Positions 1,046-48,391 of a stretch of DNA of 64,000 nucleotides are shown here, piece by piece (position 1 is the stretch's first letter; each line of letters starts with the position of its first letter). The stretch lies in the NCBI GenBank assembly GCA_018093385.1, contig GCA_018093385.1_4808.1. One strand, given 5' to 3'. The notes under the pieces were generated by a model. The model was not told the origin of the DNA, did no database searches, and saw only the letters and a list, made by a program, of their open reading frames with translations. This stretch comes from a phage. The position numbers and the translations under genes are program-made.

Positions 1046-3379
1046 TTATTTCGCTGATTTCAGCGCGGCTATCTCTGCCTCTAGTGATTCAACCTTTTTC
1101 ATCAACTCCTGCACCACGTGCATCGTGTCAAGAAGCATTGGAGTTGTGTCTAGTTGTTTTTGTTCAACCTCTACGCCTTCGCTCGGATAGAATTTCACCG
1201 TTTTTACATACAACGGGTCAATAATCTCTGCTTGTTGAGCGATGACACCCCTTCTTACCCTTTCCTTTTCATCATTGTTGTAAATAAATGTCACATATTC
1301 CAACGATGAAAGGTTGCTCCATGCTTTTTCAACCGTTCCTGGCTGTATGTCATGCTTCAAATTCTCATCAGAGATGGCATTCTTTTGAAGAGTATAAAAG
1401 CTATCTGATCCAAGAATTGATACAGAGAAAAACACATCATGAGAGTTAGGCTGTATGTTCATCCTTGTCTGGTACTGCGCATTATCATCTCCAACGACGA
1501 GCCAAGTGCCCTGCGCAAAACTTCCGTTATTGTTGTGGATCAAACCGTGGTGAAGCGTTGTGGCATAACCTGTATCAACCTGTTGACCGCCGCTAAAAAG
1601 ACTGTTGAAAGCATAGTTTTGACCCATTGACTGTCTCACCGTTGCATAGGTGCCGATTCTTGTTCCAGTCTCACTCCAAGACATTAAGCTTCCATATCTC
1701 GCGGCGAATCTGTCGCTGCTAAGAGTTCCTGCATCATCAAATGCAAGGTCTTTAGTCACCCCTTTTGTTTTATTGTACACAGACAGTATTGCATAATAAA
1801 ATCCATCCATGTATGCATCGCATCGCAATCCGGCATCAGCTTCAACAACAGTACCAATTTTGTATTGTGCCCTTACTTGCCCTGAAGACCCCTTAACCCC
1901 AGAGCCTGGTCGAACAGAATCCGCATTGATAACTGACCATTGCGTATTCGCGGCAACAAAGCCACCAGATGCACGAATCACCCAAACACCGACAAAGTTG
2001 CGCGGCACGATTTCAGCCGCTGATCTTCCGTATACAGGGCTTGATCGAGAAGCGTCAAAGTTTGTTTGTATGAATCTTGAACCAGAACCTGCTGCTGCTG
2101 GAGAGTCCCCAGAAGTGATCGACTGAAAAGCGCCATTAGTCGCCACCTGACTTGGCGCAGAAGCCAACGTGACCATTGTGCGCGGCGCGGAGTAAGTTAT
2201 ATTTGGTGCACCTGACTCAGAAACGACTCCATTTGATGATGGATTGCCTCCATCACCTCGACCGAACAGGGCCTGAATAGAACCCGTCTGCACGCCGTTT
2301 CGGTCCGGCACACGAAATGTTGTCGTTCCGTTACCTAAAGAGTATTTACCGCGTTTCGCTGGGTCCGCTAACCAATCTGCATCTGCAATAGGTGAAAGCA
2401 TTTGCGCATACGCCCAAAGTTCAGGCCAGTCAGCGCGGTTTAACAACTGCCCATCAGCAACGACTTCATACGGTTGAATATAAGCACGGCTGTCGCGTAA
2501 GTGGAAGTCACCGACGCCATAGTTCATAACGCCGTTCATACTTGGTCCAACGGTGCCTGTGTTTACTAAGTTCTCAACCCAACGCTTGGTCGCGGCATCA
2601 TGATCGTTTACTGGGTCACCAGCAAGCGGTGTTGCACCTTGTGGACGAATATTCAACCATGCTTGCGCATTGTCGGCTGACCCTGTGCCGCCCATAGAAG
2701 TCGGAACGATGTTTTGATCAGCGACTGTGCCAAATCCAAAAGCGGACTTCATACCCTGAATGGTAGTTTGGCCTGTGCCGCCGTTGGCGACTGGGATTAT
2801 GCTTGACTCGGAATAAATCATGACCCAAGGAGACCACGTGCTATTTTGAGCGTTGAATCTTCTTTGGTAAGTATTGTTAATGGAATATGATGTGTATTTT
2901 TGAATGCAACTTTCGGTCGATACTCCTGTTTGCAACACCTCTAAGACTCCTGCTTGTTCAACAGGATAGTTCAATCCAAAAGAGGCGGCGCCATCAGAGT
3001 TCTGATAATATTGCCCAAACCAGCTGCCGGTAAGAGCATTAAGATTCATGCCGGAAGGAACAGTGCCAAAATTTCGCAAGGTATTGGTCAAAGTCGCAGC
3101 AGTTGTTCGAATGGAAAGCATGTCACCAGCCGCCCATGCACGCGCTGCAGTTCCTTCCTGCGCACGCTGCACGGTTAGCACGTTTCCAACTACGGCTGTT
3201 ACTGTGACGATTTCAAATTGGAGGCCTGTTGCAGCGTCGACGATTGTCGCCACTACACGCTCGTTCGCGGCCAAGGTCGGAAAGCCCGACCCTGAGCGGA
3301 TTGTGATTGTGGTGTCTGAAGTCGTCGTTGGCTGGGCAAGCGCGACCTCAAAGTTGTTTTTGAATATTAGCCTTGGCAT
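1046..3379 (-). CDS. tail fibre/tailspike protein with C-terminal intramolecular chaperone (peptidase S74-like) domain
   Basis: 777 aa; C-terminal region SDENLKHDIQP...GVIAQQAEIIDPLYV...LEAEIAALK resembles auto-cleaving chaperone domains of phage fibres/endosialidases; Gly/Ser/Thr-rich central part. Confidence 0.6.
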   Translation of the reverse strand: MPRLIFKNNFEVALAQPTTTSDTTITIRSGSGFPTLAANERVVATIVDAATGLQFEIVTVTAVVGNVLTVQRAQEGTAARAWAAGDMLSIRTTAATLTNTLRNFGTVPSGMNLNALTGSWFGQYYQNSDGAASFGLNYPVEQAGVLEVLQTGVSTESCIQKYTSYSINNTYQRRFNAQNSTWSPWVMIYSESSIIPVANGGTGQTTIQGMKSAFGFGTVADQNIVPTSMGGTGSADNAQAWLNIRPQGATPLAGDPVNDHDAATKRWVENLVNTGTVGPSMNGVMNYGVGDFHLRDSRAYIQPYEVVADGQLLNRADWPELWAYAQMLSPIADADWLADPAKRGKYSLGNGTTTFRVPDRNGVQTGSIQALFGRGDGGNPSSNGVVSESGAPNITYSAPRTMVTLASAPSQVATNGAFQSITSGDSPAAAGSGSRFIQTNFDASRSSPVYGRSAAEIVPRNFVGVWVIRASGGFVAANTQWSVINADSVRPGSGVKGSSGQVRAQYKIGTVVEADAGLRCDAYMDGFYYAILSVYNKTKGVTKDLAFDDAGTLSSDRFAARYGSLMSWSETGTRIGTYATVRQSMGQNYAFNSLFSGGQQVDTGYATTLHHGLIHNNNGSFAQGTWLVVGDDNAQYQTRMNIQPNSHDVFFSVSILGSDSFYTLQKNAISDENLKHDIQPGTVEKAWSNLSSLEYVTFIYNNDEKERVRRGVIAQQAEIIDPLYVKTVKFYPSEGVEVEQKQLDTTPMLLDTMHVVQELMKKVESLEAEIAALKSAK

Positions 3380-3417
3380 TTTACGGTCCTCGTTTTGTCG
3401 ACAACCGTATTATAACC

Positions 3418-7070: not shown

Positions 7071-9446
7071 ATGAAAATTCTTGGCATAAAACTCTGGGAG
7101 AAGACGCAACCAGAAGCCGAACCAGCGGAGATGCCGCCAGGCGACCCATTGGCACCGTTTGAACGCCTTGAAAGGCGCGGCAGCGGTCAACGCTGGGAAA
7201 AGACTGAAAGCAATCGACCGACCTTTAAAACGGTTGATGACTTCCCTTTATATGAGCCTGATATCAACGGGGACGGCGTTGCAATCATCAAAGGTCGCTC
7301 AGTAGATTCAGCAACCGTATCCAAAAAAGTTATGGATAATGCCTTAAAGAACATCAGTTCAGAAGGGCAGGTGAATCCATACACAGTGCCTATTCAGTTG
7401 CAAAACTGGTACTTGTCGCAGTCATTCATCGGCTATCAAGCTTGCGCCATCATCGCGCAGCACTGGCTGGTGAACAAGGCTTGTTCCATGGTAGGTCGCG
7501 ATGCGGTCCGTAAAGGCTGGGAAGTCAAATCCAGTTCTGAGTCGGAATTGTCAGTACAGGCCAGCGAACGCCTAAAGCAAATTGATAAAGAATTTAATAT
7601 CAAAGAGCACTTAGTTGAAGCCGAACGATTCAAGAATATTTTTGGCATCCGCGTCATCATATTTGATGTGCGCAGTGATGACCCAGAATATTATAGTAAA
7701 CCTTTTAACATCGATGGTGTGACAAAAGGGTCTTATAAGGGAATCATTCAGGTTGACCCTTATTGGATGATGCCATTCTTGACGTCTGAAAACACTGCAG
7801 ACCCTGCGTCACAGCATTTCTATGATCCAGAATACTGGGTTATCAGCGGACAGCGTTATCATCGCAGCCACCTAATCATCTTGCGCAACGATGAGCCAGC
7901 TGATATTCTCAAGCCGACTTATATCTACGGCGGCATTCCTCTGACTCAGCAGATTTATGAACGTATCTATGCCGCTGAACGTACCGCTAACGAAGCGCCA
8001 TTGCTGGCGATGTCTAAGCGTACAACCACGCTGCGGACCGACGTTGACAAGGCGATTGCCAATGAGCGGTCGTTTGCCGAACGTCTGATGATGTGGATTA
8101 AGTACCGCGACAACTATGCGGTAAAAGTGCTTGGTCAGAAAGAAGAGATGGACCAGTTTGACATCAACTTGTCAGACTTCGACAGCATCATCATGAACCA
8201 GTACCAGCTGGTGGCTGCAATCGCAAAAGTGCCGTCGACGAAGCTATTAGGGACGTCACCTAAAGGCTTTAACGCCACTGGTGAGTTCGAGATGGTCAGC
8301 TATCACGAAGAATTGGAAACTTGTCAGCAGCACGATTTGACGAAGATTCTGGACCGTCACTATAAAATCCTTTTGAAATCTGAAGGTGTTGAAGTCGACG
8401 TTAAAGTGGCATGGGAGCCAGTTGGTTCACTTACTGCTACTCAGCTTGCAGAGATTAACGACAAACGAGCGAATACTGGTAAGACTCTCATTGATGCTGG
8501 CGTCATCTCCCCTGATGAAGAGCGCGACCGCATCAAGGACGACAAAAACAGCGGCTACAACCGTTTGCCAGAAGATACAGCAGAAGAAACCCCAGGGATG
8601 TCTCCAGAGAATATGGCATTGCTTGGCAAGTCTGCTGGTGAAGTTCTGCAAGGTAAAGCCGATATTGAACAGGCCAAAGCTGATGTCGTCAAGATGGGCG
8701 GCCAGTTCTATAGTGAGACTGGTATCATGCCGGAAGGTGCCGCGCGCGGTGAGTTGGCAGAAAACCCTGACAGGGCGCCAGTTGAGATCAACATGGATGA
8801 TACCGATGACGAATCAAGCCATCAGGTTGATGTCCTAACGCAACTGAAAGAAGGTCTGGAGGGTATTGCTGACTATTACCTTAAAGAAGGTCAGGATGTG
8901 GATTTTGACCCTCAAAAAGACGCAAGGTCTGTGCAGCCGTCTACCCTTCCAAGCGTAAAAGGCAATGTAGTCAACTTGCGCCACAATGTAGGGAAGATGG
9001 ATGCCTCATCGCTGCCTAAGATGAAGTTGCACGGGATGATTCTTGGTATTGAGAATCCTCGCAACAGCATTCGCAGGGGCAACAGCCTTGATGGTGAATG
9101 GGCAGTTAAGATGCCGCACCATTACGGATTTATCAAAGGCACCAAGGGCGCTGATGGTGATGAAGTCGACTGCTTTGTTGGACCAAATATGAAGTCGCCT
9201 AAAGTATTCATCATTAACCAAAATGATAATTATTCTGGCGAATTTGATGAACACAAGTGTATGCTTGGATTTGATTCAGCAGAAGAAGCGAAAGAAGCTT
9301 ATCAAGCATCATTTGGTAACGGTTGGAATGGATTTGACTCAATCCACGAATTGGATGTAAACTCATTCAAGGAGTGGTTGAAGGGTGATTGCTCTCAAGC
9401 ATATGGAGCACTCAATAATCCTACTAATTCACCGAAGCAAGGTTGA
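7071..9446 (+). CDS. portal protein with C-terminal extension
   Basis: 791 aa ORF between TerL and MuF-like gene (synteny); C-terminal ~120 aa carry pyrophosphatase-like motifs (see findings). Confidence 0.55.
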   Translation: MKILGIKLWEKTQPEAEPAEMPPGDPLAPFERLERRGSGQRWEKTESNRPTFKTVDDFPLYEPDINGDGVAIIKGRSVDSATVSKKVMDNALKNISSEGQVNPYTVPIQLQNWYLSQSFIGYQACAIIAQHWLVNKACSMVGRDAVRKGWEVKSSSESELSVQASERLKQIDKEFNIKEHLVEAERFKNIFGIRVIIFDVRSDDPEYYSKPFNIDGVTKGSYKGIIQVDPYWMMPFLTSENTADPASQHFYDPEYWVISGQRYHRSHLIILRNDEPADILKPTYIYGGIPLTQQIYERIYAAERTANEAPLLAMSKRTTTLRTDVDKAIANERSFAERLMMWIKYRDNYAVKVLGQKEEMDQFDINLSDFDSIIMNQYQLVAAIAKVPSTKLLGTSPKGFNATGEFEMVSYHEELETCQQHDLTKILDRHYKILLKSEGVEVDVKVAWEPVGSLTATQLAEINDKRANTGKTLIDAGVISPDEERDRIKDDKNSGYNRLPEDTAEETPGMSPENMALLGKSAGEVLQGKADIEQAKADVVKMGGQFYSETGIMPEGAARGELAENPDRAPVEINMDDTDDESSHQVDVLTQLKEGLEGIADYYLKEGQDVDFDPQKDARSVQPSTLPSVKGNVVNLRHNVGKMDASSLPKMKLHGMILGIENPRNSIRRGNSLDGEWAVKMPHHYGFIKGTKGADGDEVDCFVGPNMKSPKVFIINQNDNYSGEFDEHKCMLGFDSAEEAKEAYQASFGNGWNGFDSIHELDVNSFKEWLKGDCSQAYGALNNPTNSPKQG

Positions 9447-34317: not shown

Positions 34318-35295
34318 TTAAAAATACTCCATATCGGTAATATCACGGAAGCATTTATACAAAGCAGAGCGCGGCACATCAACAATGCCAAAGTTAAAGA
34401 ATTTATACGTTAGATATTTATCGCGATAGTTCTCGCGATTCTCCCAAAGCATTTTTCTCTCTGCCATAGGCATTGAACCAGCGGATACGCGGAAAGGAAT
34501 CATCTCACCTTTTTCATCCACATATTTTGGATTGACGACTACGAATGAGCCAAGGTGTCCTTTCGCAACTAAACCTTCAGCCTCTTTTGAACGCTTGGTG
34601 CGACCCAATTCGTCAATGAATGCTTCGTTGTTGTTCTCCATCATCTCAACGAAGTCTATGATCAATCCTTCTTCATCGGTCCACGGCTTGTCCTTCCACA
34701 CATCACGTGACTTCGGCGTCGCGCGGCCATGCTTGTATTTGCCCGTCCAAGACTTGCCATACAAGCCTTCATATCCAAGCTGGTCTGCTTCGATTTGCAT
34801 CGCCGCGTACTGTTCCATATTTTCGATGTTTCGATATTCGAGAGCGCGAAGGAATGGGCGTCGACCATGGTTGATGAGATGTTGATTAACTTCAGCAACT
34901 CTAGCTCGATAGTTTGCATAACGCTTTTCAAAAGGCAGATCAGGTTCGCTAAAGTCATCAAACACCCACCATGTAAAGTTAGTGATTGCATCAGTGTTCA
35001 TGCATGCAGTATAGGCCTGTTGCATGACGTTCTTGTCATTTGGATTGCCGTCGATTAGCTCTCCATCAAGTCCGTGAATTAATTCACCCAAGAAGAGGAA
35101 CTCTTTTTTGATTTGAATGTTGCGCAGCGCCATGCCGGACGTGCCCATTGGCAAGTTGTCATACGCCATTGCGCGTATGCCATCGACCTTGAATGACAAT
35201 CCGCAAGGCAGCGGCACGTCTTCGCCGCGCTCGATTATTTGCTTACGCTGGCAACCCTTCATTGGTTTTAATGCTTTGATTTCTCCTGCCATCAC
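34318..35295 (-). CDS. ATP-dependent DNA ligase
   Basis: Adenylation motif I FKVDGIRA (K-x-D-G-x-R); 325 aa. Confidence 0.8.
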   Translation of the reverse strand: MMAGEIKALKPMKGCQRKQIIERGEDVPLPCGLSFKVDGIRAMAYDNLPMGTSGMALRNIQIKKEFLFLGELIHGLDGELIDGNPNDKNVMQQAYTACMNTDAITNFTWWVFDDFSEPDLPFEKRYANYRARVAEVNQHLINHGRRPFLRALEYRNIENMEQYAAMQIEADQLGYEGLYGKSWTGKYKHGRATPKSRDVWKDKPWTDEEGLIIDFVEMMENNNEAFIDELGRTKRSKEAEGLVAKGHLGSFVVVNPKYVDEKGEMIPFRVSAGSMPMAERKMLWENRENYRDKYLTYKFFNFGIVDVPRSALYKCFRDITDMEYF

Positions 35296-35885
35296 TCAAA
35301 CTCCTTATTCATCACTTGTTCCAGCGCATAGGCGTAAGCCTGATCAGTCGATTTGATAAACGTGCCGTTGTACATGACGCCTTTGCGGTCTTTGATGTCT
35401 TCGTAGGCAGCTTGCGCACAGTCGGATAAGCGAAGGCCATAATCATGAGCTACGCCGGAAAGGTAATCGACTGCGGCCATGATGGTGACGTCAATATCCA
35501 TGGTTTGATTCTTGGCAATAGCATCACCAAGTCGTCCAAGGGTCTTTGCCAGGCGAAGGATAAATGAATGAGGGTGAGCGCCTTTATCAGCGCAACCGCC
35601 GCCATTAATGTTTTCGATTTCAGCACCGTTTTGCGCTGCCAGGATGGTCAACACGACAAGGCAATCGCCAATGTCGTCCTTAATTGCGGCTTGCAAGTCA
35701 CAGATGGCCTGCTCTGTATATCCAATTTCGGGGTCGAAGAACACAAGGTCATGGAGTTGATCAACGTGGTCGGTCAACTCCCCAAACTCGCTGATAAGCT
35801 TCGGGTATTGGTCCTTAAGGTCGCAACCTTGGATGATGTTACGGTCAGAAGCCCACTGGCGAATGTTTGCATAAATCTGGTTCAT
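35292..35885 (-). CDS. MazG-like nucleotide pyrophosphohydrolase
   Basis: KLISEFGELTDHV and IGDCLVVLTILAAQNG resemble the MazG EExxE / GD-x-L helix motifs. Confidence 0.45.
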   Translation of the reverse strand: MNQIYANIRQWASDRNIIQGCDLKDQYPKLISEFGELTDHVDQLHDLVFFDPEIGYTEQAICDLQAAIKDDIGDCLVVLTILAAQNGAEIENINGGGCADKGAHPHSFILRLAKTLGRLGDAIAKNQTMDIDVTIMAAVDYLSGVAHDYGLRLSDCAQAAYEDIKDRKGVMYNGTFIKSTDQAYAYALEQVMNKEFE

Positions 35886-43651: not shown

Positions 43652-43678
43652 AAAAAGGCCGCCCATTAGGACGGCCAC
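43652..43678 (-). terminator. candidate rho-independent terminator
   Basis: Imperfect hairpin GGCCGUCC-UAAU-GGGCGGCC followed by U-run on minus strand. Confidence 0.4.
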
Positions 43679-44340: not shown

Positions 44341-45024
44341 TTATTTACCAAATGGAATATCAGTACCAGACATAAAGCGCCATGCGCCTGTAATTAAGAT
44401 ATGGCGAATGAAGTCAGCAATTACTTGCGGCTCAGTCTCCAATCCATTCATCAATGCCTTTTTCTGGTATTCAGCGGCGTATTCAGGAGTCCAGCCGCGA
44501 GTCGCGCAAACTGCATCTTCAATCTGTTTAGACATGCCAGTGCCGCGCAACTTGTTAGGACTAATAGAGAATACCGTGATGCCGTACTTAGGCGTAAGTT
44601 CGTGAGCCATCTGCTTGCTGATCATAAGCGCAGCGGCCTTGGATGCATTATAACACAAGCTGGACGTCATAGGAATATGCGCAGCGTTGGAAACGATGTT
44701 GATCACAAAGCCTTTGTTGTCGATAAGACTTTTCAGCGCAGCCTGAGTCGTGTTAACGAAAGAGAATGCGTTGGTGTGCATAACGCGGTTAAACTCTTCA
44801 TAGTTTACATCTTCAAACCAATTGTTAGAGTTGACACCAGCACAGTTGATCAAGCCTTCAACATCATATGGGCTTAAAATTTCTTTCATCTGTTTAGCAT
44901 CGCGGACGTCATATCCGTATGCTGAATCGATGCCAAGCACGTTATGACCGTAAGCGCCAAGGGTGTCAAAAATAGATTTACCAAGACCGGAATTGGAACC
45001 TGTTACAACAATTACTTTTTTCAT
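44341..45024 (-). CDS. short-chain dehydrogenase/reductase (SDR)
   Basis: N-terminal TGSNSGLG dinucleotide-binding motif; catalytic Y-x-x-x-K (YNASK). Confidence 0.75.
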   Translation of the reverse strand: MKKVIVVTGSNSGLGKSIFDTLGAYGHNVLGIDSAYGYDVRDAKQMKEILSPYDVEGLINCAGVNSNNWFEDVNYEEFNRVMHTNAFSFVNTTQAALKSLIDNKGFVINIVSNAAHIPMTSSLCYNASKAAALMISKQMAHELTPKYGITVFSISPNKLRGTGMSKQIEDAVCATRGWTPEYAAEYQKKALMNGLETEPQVIADFIRHILITGAWRFMSGTDIPFGK

Positions 45025-45089: not shown

Positions 45090-45965
45090 CTATTTATTGA
45101 AATTAATATTATGGGTGTTTACAAGACGTTCACACATGGCGCTATAAACACCATCGTCGTGTATTGAGTCTTCGTGCTTCAGGCCGCTGATTGCGAAGCG
45201 TGTAAGCTTGACAATCTTAAGCTCGAACAGATGCCACATGTGGTAGTCTTCCGGTGTTTTCAGCGTCACGCCATTAGGGAACAGTACCTGCATAACCTGA
45301 CCTACCATCACAGCGTTATCGCCATAGACAGCGTTGCGCTCACGGAAGGTCGCGGCCATCGCATCAAGAATATCGGCGGCGGTTGCTGGGCCTTGTGGTT
45401 CAACTTCAACAACTTTAGTCTCTTCTTTCCCTGTTGCGCTTGGATCAACTGCTAATTGCTGCACCATTTCACCTGCCTTGCAAAGATTAAATGTAAAAGC
45501 GATTTTATTTTGAGCAACGGAATTATAATACAAGGCTTCATCTTGCATCGCCGCGAGTACGTCTTGTCGGTCGTCGAATACATTAATGATTCGATAATCG
45601 CCGTGCCGCAAAGCGTGCGATAGCCATCCAGATTTCATAATAGTTGATGGACGTTTGTCGCCAGAGTCTCTCATCTTGATTGTAAATTCATCAAAAGGGA
45701 AAACATTGTCCAGACGTTCAAAAGTCACTTGTCTGTATTTTTCTGGCCTTGCAGTCCAATATTCAACCGCCTCACCGCGAAGAGATGCCGACTCTACTGC
45801 TGATGCAATGTGAGGATAGAACTGATCATAACCAATACCGCTGTGATAGTCATCATAGTCTGACAACGGACCTGCCACCTTGATGCGGTCTAAGCGCCAA
45901 CGGTCATCAAACAGCGTTCCGTCAAGGTCGAATACGTTTAAGATTTCGCTGTTTTTAATGCTCAT
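45090..45965 (-). CDS. HAD-family phosphatase fused to a C-terminal nucleotide-metabolism-associated domain
   Basis: HAD motif I FDLDGTLFD near N-terminus; C-terminal FRERNAVYGDNAVMVGQ ... EDSIHDDGVY resembles MazG-like/DUF1599-type helical domains (from memory). Confidence 0.5.
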   Translation of the reverse strand: MSIKNSEILNVFDLDGTLFDDRWRLDRIKVAGPLSDYDDYHSGIGYDQFYPHIASAVESASLRGEAVEYWTARPEKYRQVTFERLDNVFPFDEFTIKMRDSGDKRPSTIMKSGWLSHALRHGDYRIINVFDDRQDVLAAMQDEALYYNSVAQNKIAFTFNLCKAGEMVQQLAVDPSATGKEETKVVEVEPQGPATAADILDAMAATFRERNAVYGDNAVMVGQVMQVLFPNGVTLKTPEDYHMWHLFELKIVKLTRFAISGLKHEDSIHDDGVYSAMCERLVNTHNINFNK

Positions 45966-46765
45966 CCTTTTGATACTCCATCTTTAGCAACTGGATTGTT
46001 GGTGATTGGCATTGCACTCCAAAACTGGATGCGCAACTCTTCTTGCTGTGCCGTGGTATCCATCCAATCACGATACCAAGGGCAATGGGCTTTGCCATGA
46101 CGAGGAAACGCGCACTTACCCATACCGATGCACTGGGGCTGTAGTAAAGGATTGGCCCACGGGTGCACCTTAAGGACTTCCGCAACCATTGCACGGAATA
46201 CTTCTTGATACTCGCCTTGAGTACGCGTGCACAAGCGGTTAGAGGCCATTTGTTGCAGAGTGCGCAAGTTGAACTTTGCCATGATATGCGTTTGCATATT
46301 AGAAGGCAACACGGCACGTGCATCTTGAATCTCTGCGCCAGCCGCGCGAAGTTCTTGGTATAGGGCGTCAATGGTTGCCATTGCATCATCCCATTTCTCT
46401 GCCAGTTCAGCAGCCTTCTCGTCATGACGAGTCCATCCCTTTGGATCATCCTCTGGGTAAGTAAATTTGGCAGGACGAATCGCATCAAATGCTGACGACT
46501 CCTGAGCGCGGCTTGTGCGTTCTTGATATGCACCTGTGCGTGTGCGCACCATCTGATGAGTCATATTCTTTGATACATCAGTGATGTCAAAGATATAGTC
46601 CACAAAGTCAAAAGGCGACTTGATTGTATCAAGCATGTAGCGCCAGTGCTCTTGCTTCTCTGATTCTGTCATCTCAGAGACTGGCTTACCAGTCATGCGC
46701 GTGTTCTTTGTTTCCAGCAAAAGGTCAAGTGCATCTTGGGTGTATCGAATTAATTCAACTTTCAT
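45962..46765 (-). CDS. ThyX-like flavin-dependent thymidylate synthase homolog (divergent)
   Basis: THQMVRTRTGAYQERTS parallels the ThyX motif RHR-x7/8-S but with RTR; 267 aa. Confidence 0.55.
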   Translation of the reverse strand: MKVELIRYTQDALDLLLETKNTRMTGKPVSEMTESEKQEHWRYMLDTIKSPFDFVDYIFDITDVSKNMTHQMVRTRTGAYQERTSRAQESSAFDAIRPAKFTYPEDDPKGWTRHDEKAAELAEKWDDAMATIDALYQELRAAGAEIQDARAVLPSNMQTHIMAKFNLRTLQQMASNRLCTRTQGEYQEVFRAMVAEVLKVHPWANPLLQPQCIGMGKCAFPRHGKAHCPWYRDWMDTTAQQEELRIQFWSAMPITNNPVAKDGVSKG

Positions 46766-46778
46766 TTTAATTATCCTA

Positions 46779-47225
46779 TTAACGGTAATTCACTAGTTGC
46801 TGATCACCAGAGAAGGTGCAATGATAAACGAATTGTGCGTTATAAAGCAACTGAAAACTTTTCTTTGGTTCATTATTAGAACTCATTGATGTAAAGATTT
46901 CTGCACCAGAACGGTTTTCACCAATCAGGTTAATAAAGCCGCCAGTTGAACGAGGCTGAACGAAAGTGAAACGCTGCATCCACGGAGTCCGGTTGGCACC
47001 TTTTCCGGTGAATCCCTGAATCTGAATATTCAGACCTTCTTGCTCGTTCACACCGATGTAAGTGGTAATTGTTGCGCCAGTCGTCGCTGCGGTCTTGCCG
47101 TCCATCGCTTCGCAATCGTAAACAGCGATTGAATCGGAAGTACGGACAGCGGCTTCAGTCGCTTCCATATACATGGTTCCGAGAATAGCAGTCGCGGCAA
47201 GCGCGATTCCAGTGATGCGTTTCAT
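46779..47225 (-). CDS. secreted/periplasmic protein
   Basis: Signal peptide-like MKRITGIALAATAILGTMYMEATEAA. Confidence 0.45.
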   Translation of the reverse strand: MKRITGIALAATAILGTMYMEATEAAVRTSDSIAVYDCEAMDGKTAATTGATITTYIGVNEQEGLNIQIQGFTGKGANRTPWMQRFTFVQPRSTGGFINLIGENRSGAEIFTSMSSNNEPKKSFQLLYNAQFVYHCTFSGDQQLVNYR

Positions 47226-48364: not shown

Positions 48365-48391
48365 AAAAAAGACCCACAACTAGTGTGGGTC
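48365..48391 (-). terminator. rho-independent terminator
   Basis: GACCCACA-ACTAGT-TGTGGGTC hairpin with U-run on minus strand. Confidence 0.6.

Follow-up and report, generated by a model that had tools for sequence, protein, structure and literature searches.

What does a homolog of the flavin-dependent thymidylate synthase ThyX make once several residues important for the canonical reaction have been replaced? The question is raised by a gene on the minus strand of a 64,000-nucleotide phage DNA (NCBI GenBank assembly GCA_018093385.1, contig GCA_018093385.1_4808.1; the whole of this stretch is hereafter the window), whose product, the ThyX-like protein, carries an RTR triplet where ThyX enzymes carry RHR. 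The simplest answer would be a plain thymidylate synthase, that is, a divergent phage ThyX that converts deoxyuridine monophosphate (dUMP) to dTMP with methylenetetrahydrofolate and NADPH and so raises dTTP for fast replication, with RTR and the other substitutions neutral or compensated and the neighboring genes serving deoxynucleoside triphosphate (dNTP) pool housekeeping or DNA-end repair. We regard this answer as quite possible, and nearly as likely as the one that we tentatively prefer, namely that the gene belongs to a conserved four-gene module that may form the nucleotide-level part of a thymine-modification pathway, in which catalysis of one step would be the candidate function of the ThyX-like protein.

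The open reading frame (ORF) is a genuine gene and not a chance frame, because its product matches the Thy1 family (Pfam PF02511, 107.1 bits against a cutoff of 24.8, E 1.2e-30, residues 5-203) and PHROG 85 'thymidylate synthase' (E 5e-38), shares 100% identity with a protein of Escherichia phage EC150 that carries the annotation thymidylate synthase, and lies in a conserved region. The 5 kb around it are found at 92-95% nucleotide identity in about 29 phage records, all Wifcevirus myophages of Escherichia and Shigella (including Bas101, WFC, vB_Eco4M-7 and ECML-117); the window is itself a Wifcevirus coliphage, and wifceviruses are distant relatives of the pbunaviruses. An AlphaFold2 model of the ThyX-like protein (pLDDT 94.7) has Thermotoga maritima ThyX as its top Foldseek match (E 4e-11, TM-score of about 0.75 on the target), with further structural matches to PolB, a methylase of uridine monophosphate (UMP) and dUMP, and to Thermus Thy1 with its additional C-terminal domain. 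The protein is a Thy1/ThyX superfamily member with the ThyX fold. The strong Thy1 match and the fold speak for a plain synthase, as do the 'thymidylate synthase' annotation in every database and the fact that this is the sole thymidylate-synthase-like gene in the phage; on the other side stands the NCBIfam thyX equivalog model TIGR02170, whose cutoff of 87.9 bits the protein narrowly misses (83.1 bits). A C-terminal extension of about 60 residues lies outside the Pfam Thy1 model, and four cysteines located in and past the last Thy1 helix behave as an all-or-none set across the subfamily described below (of 121 representatives, 62 have all four and 55 lack every one), a pattern that suggests a possible metal site, with Zn or Fe-S, that has no counterpart in canonical ThyX. 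The Cys-bearing insert is missing from the homolog of a Rhizobium phage.

The RTR triplet was the starting point of a preliminary description made from the window alone, which assigned the protein to the ThyX family with the motif His replaced by Thr, without naming the minus strand. A HMMER alignment to T. maritima ThyX places R74-T75-R76 on Arg78-His79-Arg80, T84 on Ser88, R86 on Arg90 and A87 on Tyr91, and together with the Thy1 match bears out both the assignment and the substitution. The accompanying fit to a signature RHR-x7/8-S stands only in part: in the translation, seven residues follow R74-T75-R76 and then come T84-S85-R86, such that S85 does sit at x8, while the strict x7 position, aligned with Ser88, is T84. 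Relative to the canonical RHR-x7-S (Myllykallio 2002, as quoted in PMC2826268), the protein therefore reads RTR-x7-T and deviates twice. Every one of the 120 nearest cluster representatives, the most distant of them 52% identical, has RTR, proteins from Serratia, Erwinia, Pantoea, Xanthomonas, Burkholderia and Pseudomonas (Pbunavirus) phages included, and the triplet is thus evolutionarily fixed among close homologs. Farther out, a motif scan over the best 150 of 1,625 representatives (50%-identity clusters, E<1e-3) returned T as the middle residue of RxR in 68 cases, H in 32, Q in 12, S in 9 and N in 6, with few others, a few of these counts being off-target pattern matches. Canonical ThyX relatives, on the other hand, keep the motif His in 119 of the 120 sampled, and we found no experimentally validated ThyX with RTR; the observation that would have refuted the preliminary description, RTR in many bona fide ThyX enzymes, was thus not made. 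One candidate for a bona fide ThyX that tolerates RTR, a protein (P0227) combining the triplet with Tyr91 and His53, was rejected as a singleton from a 3.3-kb contig; its 119 nearest relatives all carry RHR followed by SQRY. RTR is thus the state of most members of a distinct subfamily, one that is no longer constrained to keep the His. The middle residue is moreover decoupled from the other substitutions considered below, position 79 of the divergent type being T, H, S, N or Q, and such free variation favors the plain-synthase answer insofar as it indicates no special selection at this position. In solved ThyX structures, the RHR residues hydrogen-bond FAD (at the AMP phosphate, the ribityl chain and the FMN phosphate), and the dUMP contacts listed for the motif involve the first Arg only (PMC6514825); the premise of the preliminary description that the motif residues contact the nucleotide substrate is weak for this reason.

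A larger departure from canonical ThyX, overlooked in the preliminary description, emerges elsewhere in the pocket. Upon alignment of 122 subfamily sequences with T. maritima ThyX, whose numbering is used here, Arg78, Arg80, Arg90, Arg147, Arg165, Arg174, Gln75, Glu58, Gln180 and Glu182 are near-invariant, and the dUMP-binding set of the ThyX-like protein is complete (R74, R76, R86, R150, R177 and Q71, equivalent to Arg78, Arg80, Arg90, Arg147, Arg174 and Gln75). Other positions have switched: His53 to Ile, Leu or Val (Ile in 82 of the 122 sequences), His59 to Phe, Tyr91 to Val, Thr, Ala, Ile or Phe, and His178 to Arg, while Ser88 is relaxed to Ser in 74, Thr in 28 and Ala in 17. Because the dUMP-binding residues are near-invariant while His53, Tyr91, His178 and Ser88 switch, the subfamily changes lie on that side of the pocket which takes the cofactor and the one-carbon unit, and not on the pyrimidine side. 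Tyr91 forms a catalytic lid above dUMP C5 and flavin N5, and the conserved and functionally important His53 stacks on folate and flavin and hydrogen-bonds Tyr91 (PMC6514825, PMC11940539, PMC8316439); Tyr91 and Ser88 have been called strictly conserved and critical, and Tyr91 mutants are 100- to 1000-fold slower (PMC11940539, PMC8316439, PMC6514825). For a plain dTMP synthase these observations cut both ways, since all dUMP-binding and most FAD-binding residues are kept, and yet three residues important for the canonical reaction have either gone (Tyr91, His53) or become variable (Ser88). Overall, the ThyX-like protein fails three features of canonical dTMP-forming ThyX, namely the signature motif, the Tyr91/His53/Ser88 set and the equivalog score.

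The subfamily is almost exclusively viral. Searches with subfamily-specific patterns across 185,579 bacterial and archaeal species, each represented by a single genome, recovered only 11 loci. Each of these is on a metagenome-assembled genome (MAG) contig (2.6-59 kb), and the phage module accompanies the gene on most of the contigs examined, whereas a viral collection gave at least 499 contig hits. A cell that uses the subfamily as its housekeeping thymidylate synthase was looked for among the same species genomes, and none was apparent. Canonical thyX, unlike this subfamily, is reported to move often between phages and cells (PMC2826268), and a plain-synthase function leaves the near-absence from cellular genomes unexplained.

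The genes around the ThyX-like gene form a conserved and specific module. Loci were pooled from annotated phages, metagenomic contigs and viral and genome collections and searched with profiles; counts refer to 66 non-redundant ThyX loci (clusters at 80% identity). A flavoprotein similar to UDP-galactopyranose mutase (UGM) accompanies the ThyX gene in 61 of these, a HAD phosphatase in 56 and a DUF6378-like domain in 55, always on one strand and in the fixed order UGM-like flavoprotein, ThyX-like protein, HAD phosphatase, DUF6378. Loci without the partners are mostly contigs truncated beside the gene, or of the canonical or actinophage types, two (L012 and L013) not being so explained. The module occurs in phages with unrelated replicases (family-A-type or DnaE-type polymerases) and also in a 206-kb Rhizobium phage whose ThyX-like protein carries RNR, and pbunaviruses have an RTR ortholog, 49% identical, in the same synteny with the flavoprotein and the HAD-DUF6378 gene. 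The module-profile search found the partner genes absent from three canonical-type loci (Clostridium phage phiCP26F, Methylophilales phage Melnitz and one MAG contig). The near-obligatory linkage to flavoprotein, phosphatase and DUF6378, which canonical phage ThyX does without, thus remains unexplained if the product is simply dTMP.

Actinophage ThyX-like genes (Gumball, Lila22) were considered as further carriers of the module and rejected, since the module hidden Markov models found no homologous partners. They represent a third type of 366-428 residues, with RQR or RTR followed by RFA, and Pfam identifies in their neighborhood an NT5C deoxypyrimidine 5'-nucleotidase, an S-adenosylmethionine (SAM) methyltransferase and a FabG-like short-chain dehydrogenase/reductase (SDR) (Gumball, L106, 534-2872 and 6836-7936), a set analogous to the functional mix in the window but built from non-homologous parts. 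Small SAM-dependent methyltransferases lie beside the ThyX-like gene or the nucleotidase partner in some metagenomic phages and in actinophages (L009/L010, 8750-9295; Gumball, 1151-1681; Lila22, L107, 61-789), which hints at extra tailoring steps in some versions of the module. In Rhizobium phage RHph_Y65 (L004), the product of 2455-3417, named 'polysaccharide deacetylase', is a homolog of the UGM-like flavoprotein (E 1e-89), and that of 7751-8470, named 'phosphoheptose isomerase', is a homolog of DUF6378 (E 1e-37); as both match the module profiles strongly, the two names appear doubtful, at least for the profile-matching parts.

The pathway to which such a module might belong is suggested by its phage relatives. 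In Pbunavirus F8 and 14-1, about a quarter of thymidines are replaced by nucleosides of 362 and 390 Da, read by the authors as derivatives of a tetrose sugar alcohol and of a cyclic aldopentose, in TG contexts, and known modification genes are absent (PMC12191111, a 2025 preprint). Wifceviruses are insensitive to restriction, including by EcoRI and EcoRV, without an established mechanism, and a thymine-type modification has been suspected. Bas101 has 30 EcoRI, 14 EcoRV, 87 EcoCFT_II and 90 EcoP1_I sites, and the window has 19 EcoRI sites, 3 EcoRV sites and 79 occurrences of AGACC. A Pbunavirus-like modification confined to TG was rejected as the explanation of the Wifcevirus phenotype, because EcoRI and EcoRV sites contain no TG. 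Pfam and PHROG searches of the neighbors and of selected larger early ORFs, together with the Bas101 annotation, revealed no ThyA-fold dUMP hydroxymethylase, 5-HMUDK kinase, aGPT-Pplase transferase or TET/JBP dioxygenase, and no other recognizable nucleotide-modification gene. We found no literature that assigns the biosynthesis of the Pbunavirus modification or ties ThyX to modification, and no publication on any member of the ThyX-like subfamily; the literature on T-dioxygenases does not cover these phages. The subfamily, its partner module and a possible link to Pbunavirus-type hypermodification are all absent from the searchable literature.

As one step of a thymine-modification pathway, the ThyX-like protein would be a flavin-dependent enzyme that still binds a uracil deoxymononucleotide and acts at C5, with its cofactor and one-carbon side rebuilt by replacement of His79 and Ser88 with Thr, of His53 with Ile, of Tyr91 with Ala and of His178 with Arg, and its product would be a C5-substituted dUMP instead of, or besides, dTMP. 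In ThyX, the N5 of the reduced flavin brings the methylene to C5 of dUMP, and elimination yields an exocyclic methylene that is normally reduced to the methyl group (PMC8989533, PMC8316439). Without the Tyr lid and acid and the His that organizes folate and flavin, this intermediate could become open to capture by water or some other nucleophile, to give 5-hydroxymethyl-dUMP, by hydration rather than reduction, or an ether; alternatively, the loss of Tyr91 and His53 could permit the delivery of a different electrophile, and a sugar-derived alkyl adduct at C5 would be a further option. UGM-type enzymes form a flavin-N5-sugar iminium, a covalent carrier of the opened sugar. Because both the ThyX and the UGM folds use the reduced-flavin N5 as a covalent carrier, attachment of a hydroxymethyl group or a sugar-derived chain at C5 becomes conceivable, and a more specific proposal, which we advance with greater reserve than the general one, is that the module supplies the biosynthetic enzymes so far missing for the sugar-type hypermodified thymine of Pbunavirus-like phages, the ThyX-like protein adding such a hydroxymethyl or sugar-derived chain to dUMP C5. 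Mass arithmetic agrees with either chemistry: 5-hydroxymethyldeoxyuridine (258) plus erythritol (122) minus 18 gives 362 and 258 plus a pentose (150) minus 18 gives 390, and an equal fit is obtained for deoxyuridine with a C5-linked 1-deoxypentitol, that is, a reduced pentose (362), or with a C5-linked hexosyl group (390). The HAD partner, translationally coupled to the ThyX-like gene and with a deoxypyrimidine 5'-nucleotidase as its actinophage analog, could act on a pyrimidine deoxynucleoside monophosphate (dNMP) or on a sugar phosphate. The TG specificity seen in pbunaviruses would call for an additional step at the DNA level, for which phiW-14 offers a precedent, with a nucleotide-level hydroxymethylase followed by sequence-dependent conversion on DNA.

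Several considerations weigh against this thymine-modification proposal. Many phages carry thymidylate synthases merely to raise dTTP supply, and the prior for any phage Thy1 protein favors a plain synthase; this prior is offset, more or less completely, once the lost residues, the module, the near-confinement to viruses and the modified thymine of relatives are taken together, but these lines of support are not mutually independent. The fold, the kept dUMP-binding residues, the missing catalytic residues, the module with its conservation and the viral range are shown; the product, the tie to DNA modification and the parts played by the partners are inferred from gene context and sequence comparison, not from experiment, and gene linkage indicates a shared pathway but not which one. 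Divergent subfamilies can compensate for lost 'invariant' residues. A dNMP kinase for a modified nucleotide was not found, and the confinement to TG in pbunaviruses needs a sequence-specific enzyme acting on DNA, which a mononucleotide-type active site cannot be. In the wifceviruses, a putative modification is indicated indirectly, by restriction insensitivity, the chemistry having been shown for Pbunavirus F8 and 14-1 only. Finally, about 75% of Pbunavirus thymine is ordinary, so dTMP is still needed (PMC12191111), which is also a point in favor of a plain synthase.

Two further answers fare less well. Formation of dTMP by a changed route, with the one-carbon unit (a formaldehyde or iminium equivalent) or the reduced flavin supplied by the neighboring flavoprotein in place of methylenetetrahydrofolate and NADPH, would suit the clustering of substitutions on the folate and flavin side rather than the dUMP side, the ability of ThyX to use formaldehyde via a flavin carbinolamine (PMC8316439), and an always adjacent flavoprotein whose fold class includes amine oxidases; we consider it unlikely, as it is purely inferential, leaves the HAD phosphatase and DUF6378 without a role, and meets a partner whose best structural match is a mutase and not a formaldehyde-releasing oxidase. 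Least probable by our estimate is the different pyrimidine substrate raised in the preliminary description, be it UMP, as for the structurally matching ThyX paralog PolB that methylates UMP and dUMP (PMC5954106), or dCMP, on which phage thymidylate synthase homologs, though of the ThyA fold, are known to act (PMC13326640), because the arginines and Gln that hold the dUMP phosphate and uracil in solved ThyX are all conserved, Arg174, which polarizes uracil O4/N3, is invariant and argues against cytosine, a nucleoside-antibiotic context is absent, and the modified base of the relatives derives from thymine and not cytosine. The idea of altered chemistry in that description survives on other grounds than RTR, whose rationale is weak, through the loss of Tyr91 and His53, the module, the virus-only range and the hypermodified thymine of relatives.

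Within the window (Table 1), the ThyX-like gene belongs to the replication region, with a Dda-like helicase on one side and the DNA polymerase on the other, and is one of six co-directional minus-strand genes bracketed by two strong terminator-like hairpins. An annotated terminator in Pbunavirus LBL3 occupies the site equivalent to the upstream hairpin, and because the two coincide we take the transcriptional architecture to be conserved between Wifcevirus and Pbunavirus. The partner flavoprotein has a two-domain FAD fold with an N-terminal GxGxxG, of the UDP-galactopyranose-mutase, protoporphyrinogen-oxidase and amine-oxidase-like class; its nearest structural match is UDP-galactopyranose mutase, with protoporphyrinogen and amine oxidases scoring nearly equally. 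Pfam and NCBIfam scans gave no match for it, and in a profile search against PDB sequences the match was limited to the dinucleotide-binding motif. The 148-residue ORF between the flavoprotein and ThyX-like genes, with no Pfam or PHROG match, stands outside the conserved module and is absent from the equivalent position in Pbunavirus LBL3 and Carpasina.

Table 1. Features of the ThyX-like gene and its surroundings in the window; residue equivalences refer to T. maritima ThyX.
Feature	Position	Strand	Remarks
Upstream intrinsic-terminator-like hairpin	48371..48391	minus	8 bp stem and T-run; 5' boundary of the unit, shortly before the flavoprotein gene
UGM-like flavoprotein, 331 aa	47291..48286	minus	FAD-Rossmann (GGGLAG), PHROG 4828; upstream partner
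148-aa ORF	46779..47225	minus	hydrophobic signal-peptide-like N-terminus (MKRITGIALAATAILG...); between flavoprotein and ThyX-like genes
ThyX-like ORF, 267 aa	45962..46765	minus	ATG start; ORF list, Pfam, PHROG
Ile48 codon (His53)	46622..46624	minus	
Phe54 (His59)			
Motif THQMVRTRTGAYQERTS, residues 69-85	46511..46561	minus	direct translation
Thr75 codon (His79)	46541..46543	minus	alignment; coordinate computed from ORF start
Thr84 (Ser88)			
Ala87 codon (Tyr91)	46505..46507	minus	
Cys179, Cys212, Cys218, Cys228	46082..46231	minus	in and past the last Thy1 helix
Arg181 (His178)			
HAD_PNKP-type phosphatase fused to DUF6378-like domain, 291 aa	45090..45965	minus	N-terminal phosphatase (DLDGT), C-terminal DUF6378-like; downstream partner
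FabG-like SDR	44341..45024	minus	same transcription unit
VOC-like ORF, 183 aa	43693..44244	minus	last gene of the unit; weak glyoxalase/VOC match, E 0.004, below Pfam cutoff
Downstream intrinsic-terminator-like hairpin	43657..43676	minus	8 bp stem (7 GC) and T-run; 3' boundary of the unit, past the VOC-like ORF
MazG-like pyrophosphatase	35292..35885	minus	PHROG 1992; C-terminal part matches PHROGs annotated DNA-binding protein

The start codon of the HAD-DUF6378 gene overlaps the ThyX-like stop codon (ATGA), and its two domains are separate genes in other phages. Its database name is 'polynucleotide kinase/phosphorylase', and a kinase domain is not detectable in it; the annotation is probably misleading. 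The PHROG labels 'phosphofructokinase' and 'polynucleotide kinase' were rejected on the same ground, kinase domain support being absent, and remote homology searches with DUF6378 (profile search against PDB sequences, Pfam scan) returned just DUF6378 itself; a MazG-like nature of this domain is conceivable. At the end of the unit, the Carpasina homolog of the VOC-like ORF matches the same glyoxalase/VOC family. Outside the unit, the MazG-like protein might suit a phage whose pyrimidine pool is being edited, if it acts as a dNTP pyrophosphatase. Over the whole window, the TA dinucleotide is strongly depleted (observed/expected 0.66) and TG, CA and TT are enriched (about 1.18).

The answer matters in either case. 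Few Pseudomonas phages are used in therapy more than the pbunaviruses, and their recently discovered thymine hypermodification decides whether host nucleases stop them; the ThyX-like gene and its module constitute a concrete, conserved gene set that is a leading candidate for producing the modified thymine of pbunaviruses and the one suspected in wifceviruses. A product other than dTMP would mean new chemistry for the flavin-dependent thymidylate synthase family, an antibiotic target, and that thousands of viral 'thymidylate synthase' annotations are wrong, and if the module does build a sugar-type modification, the ThyX fold would acquire a reaction of a new class, and hypermodified DNA would be reached by a new route. 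Should plain dTMP be made instead, ThyX catalysis can do without Tyr91 or His53, which would be useful to the debate on its mechanism.

Among known systems, canonical ThyX (T. maritima TM0449, M. tuberculosis Rv2754c, H. pylori, PBCV-1 A674R) shares with the ThyX-like protein the Pfam family and fold, the residues R78, R80, R90, R147, R174 and Q75 for dUMP and most FAD contacts (R165, E58); the ThyX-like protein differs by RTR, by Ala, Ile, Thr and Arg in place of Tyr91, His53, Ser88 and His178, by the four-Cys C-terminal segment and the sub-cutoff equivalog score, and by its virus-only range and fixed partners. PolB of Streptomyces cacaoi, the polyoxin UMP/dUMP C5-methylase, likewise has the ThyX fold, is structurally similar and was recruited to a dedicated pathway (PMC5954106), but it still methylates and belongs to a bacterial antibiotic gene cluster with other partner genes. 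If the proposed role in thymine modification holds, the closest functional counterparts would be the dUMP hydroxymethylases of SPO1, phiW-14, ViI and M6, which act at the same nucleotide level on C5 (PMC8989533); these have the ThyA fold, their 5-HMUDK kinases and aGPT-Pplase transferases were not found in the window phage, and their modifications are of the amino-acid or polyamine type, whereas that of the Pbunavirus relatives is of the sugar type. The only earlier published suggestion known to us that a member of the ThyX family might produce a modified dUMP concerns gp130 of Bacillus phage SP-15, a phage with a polyol-type hypermodified uracil, in which this Thy1-family protein was hypothesized to be a hydroxymethyluridylate synthase (PMC5977210); gp130, unlike the subfamily studied here, was described as without homologs (PMC5977210). 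RB69 gp48 and DLP3 gp80, finally, provide a precedent in which a thymidylate synthase homolog with a small active-site change produces 5-hydroxy-dCMP that is later glycosylated (PMC13326640), though with a flavin-binding ThyA fold, a cytosine substrate and in another phage family.

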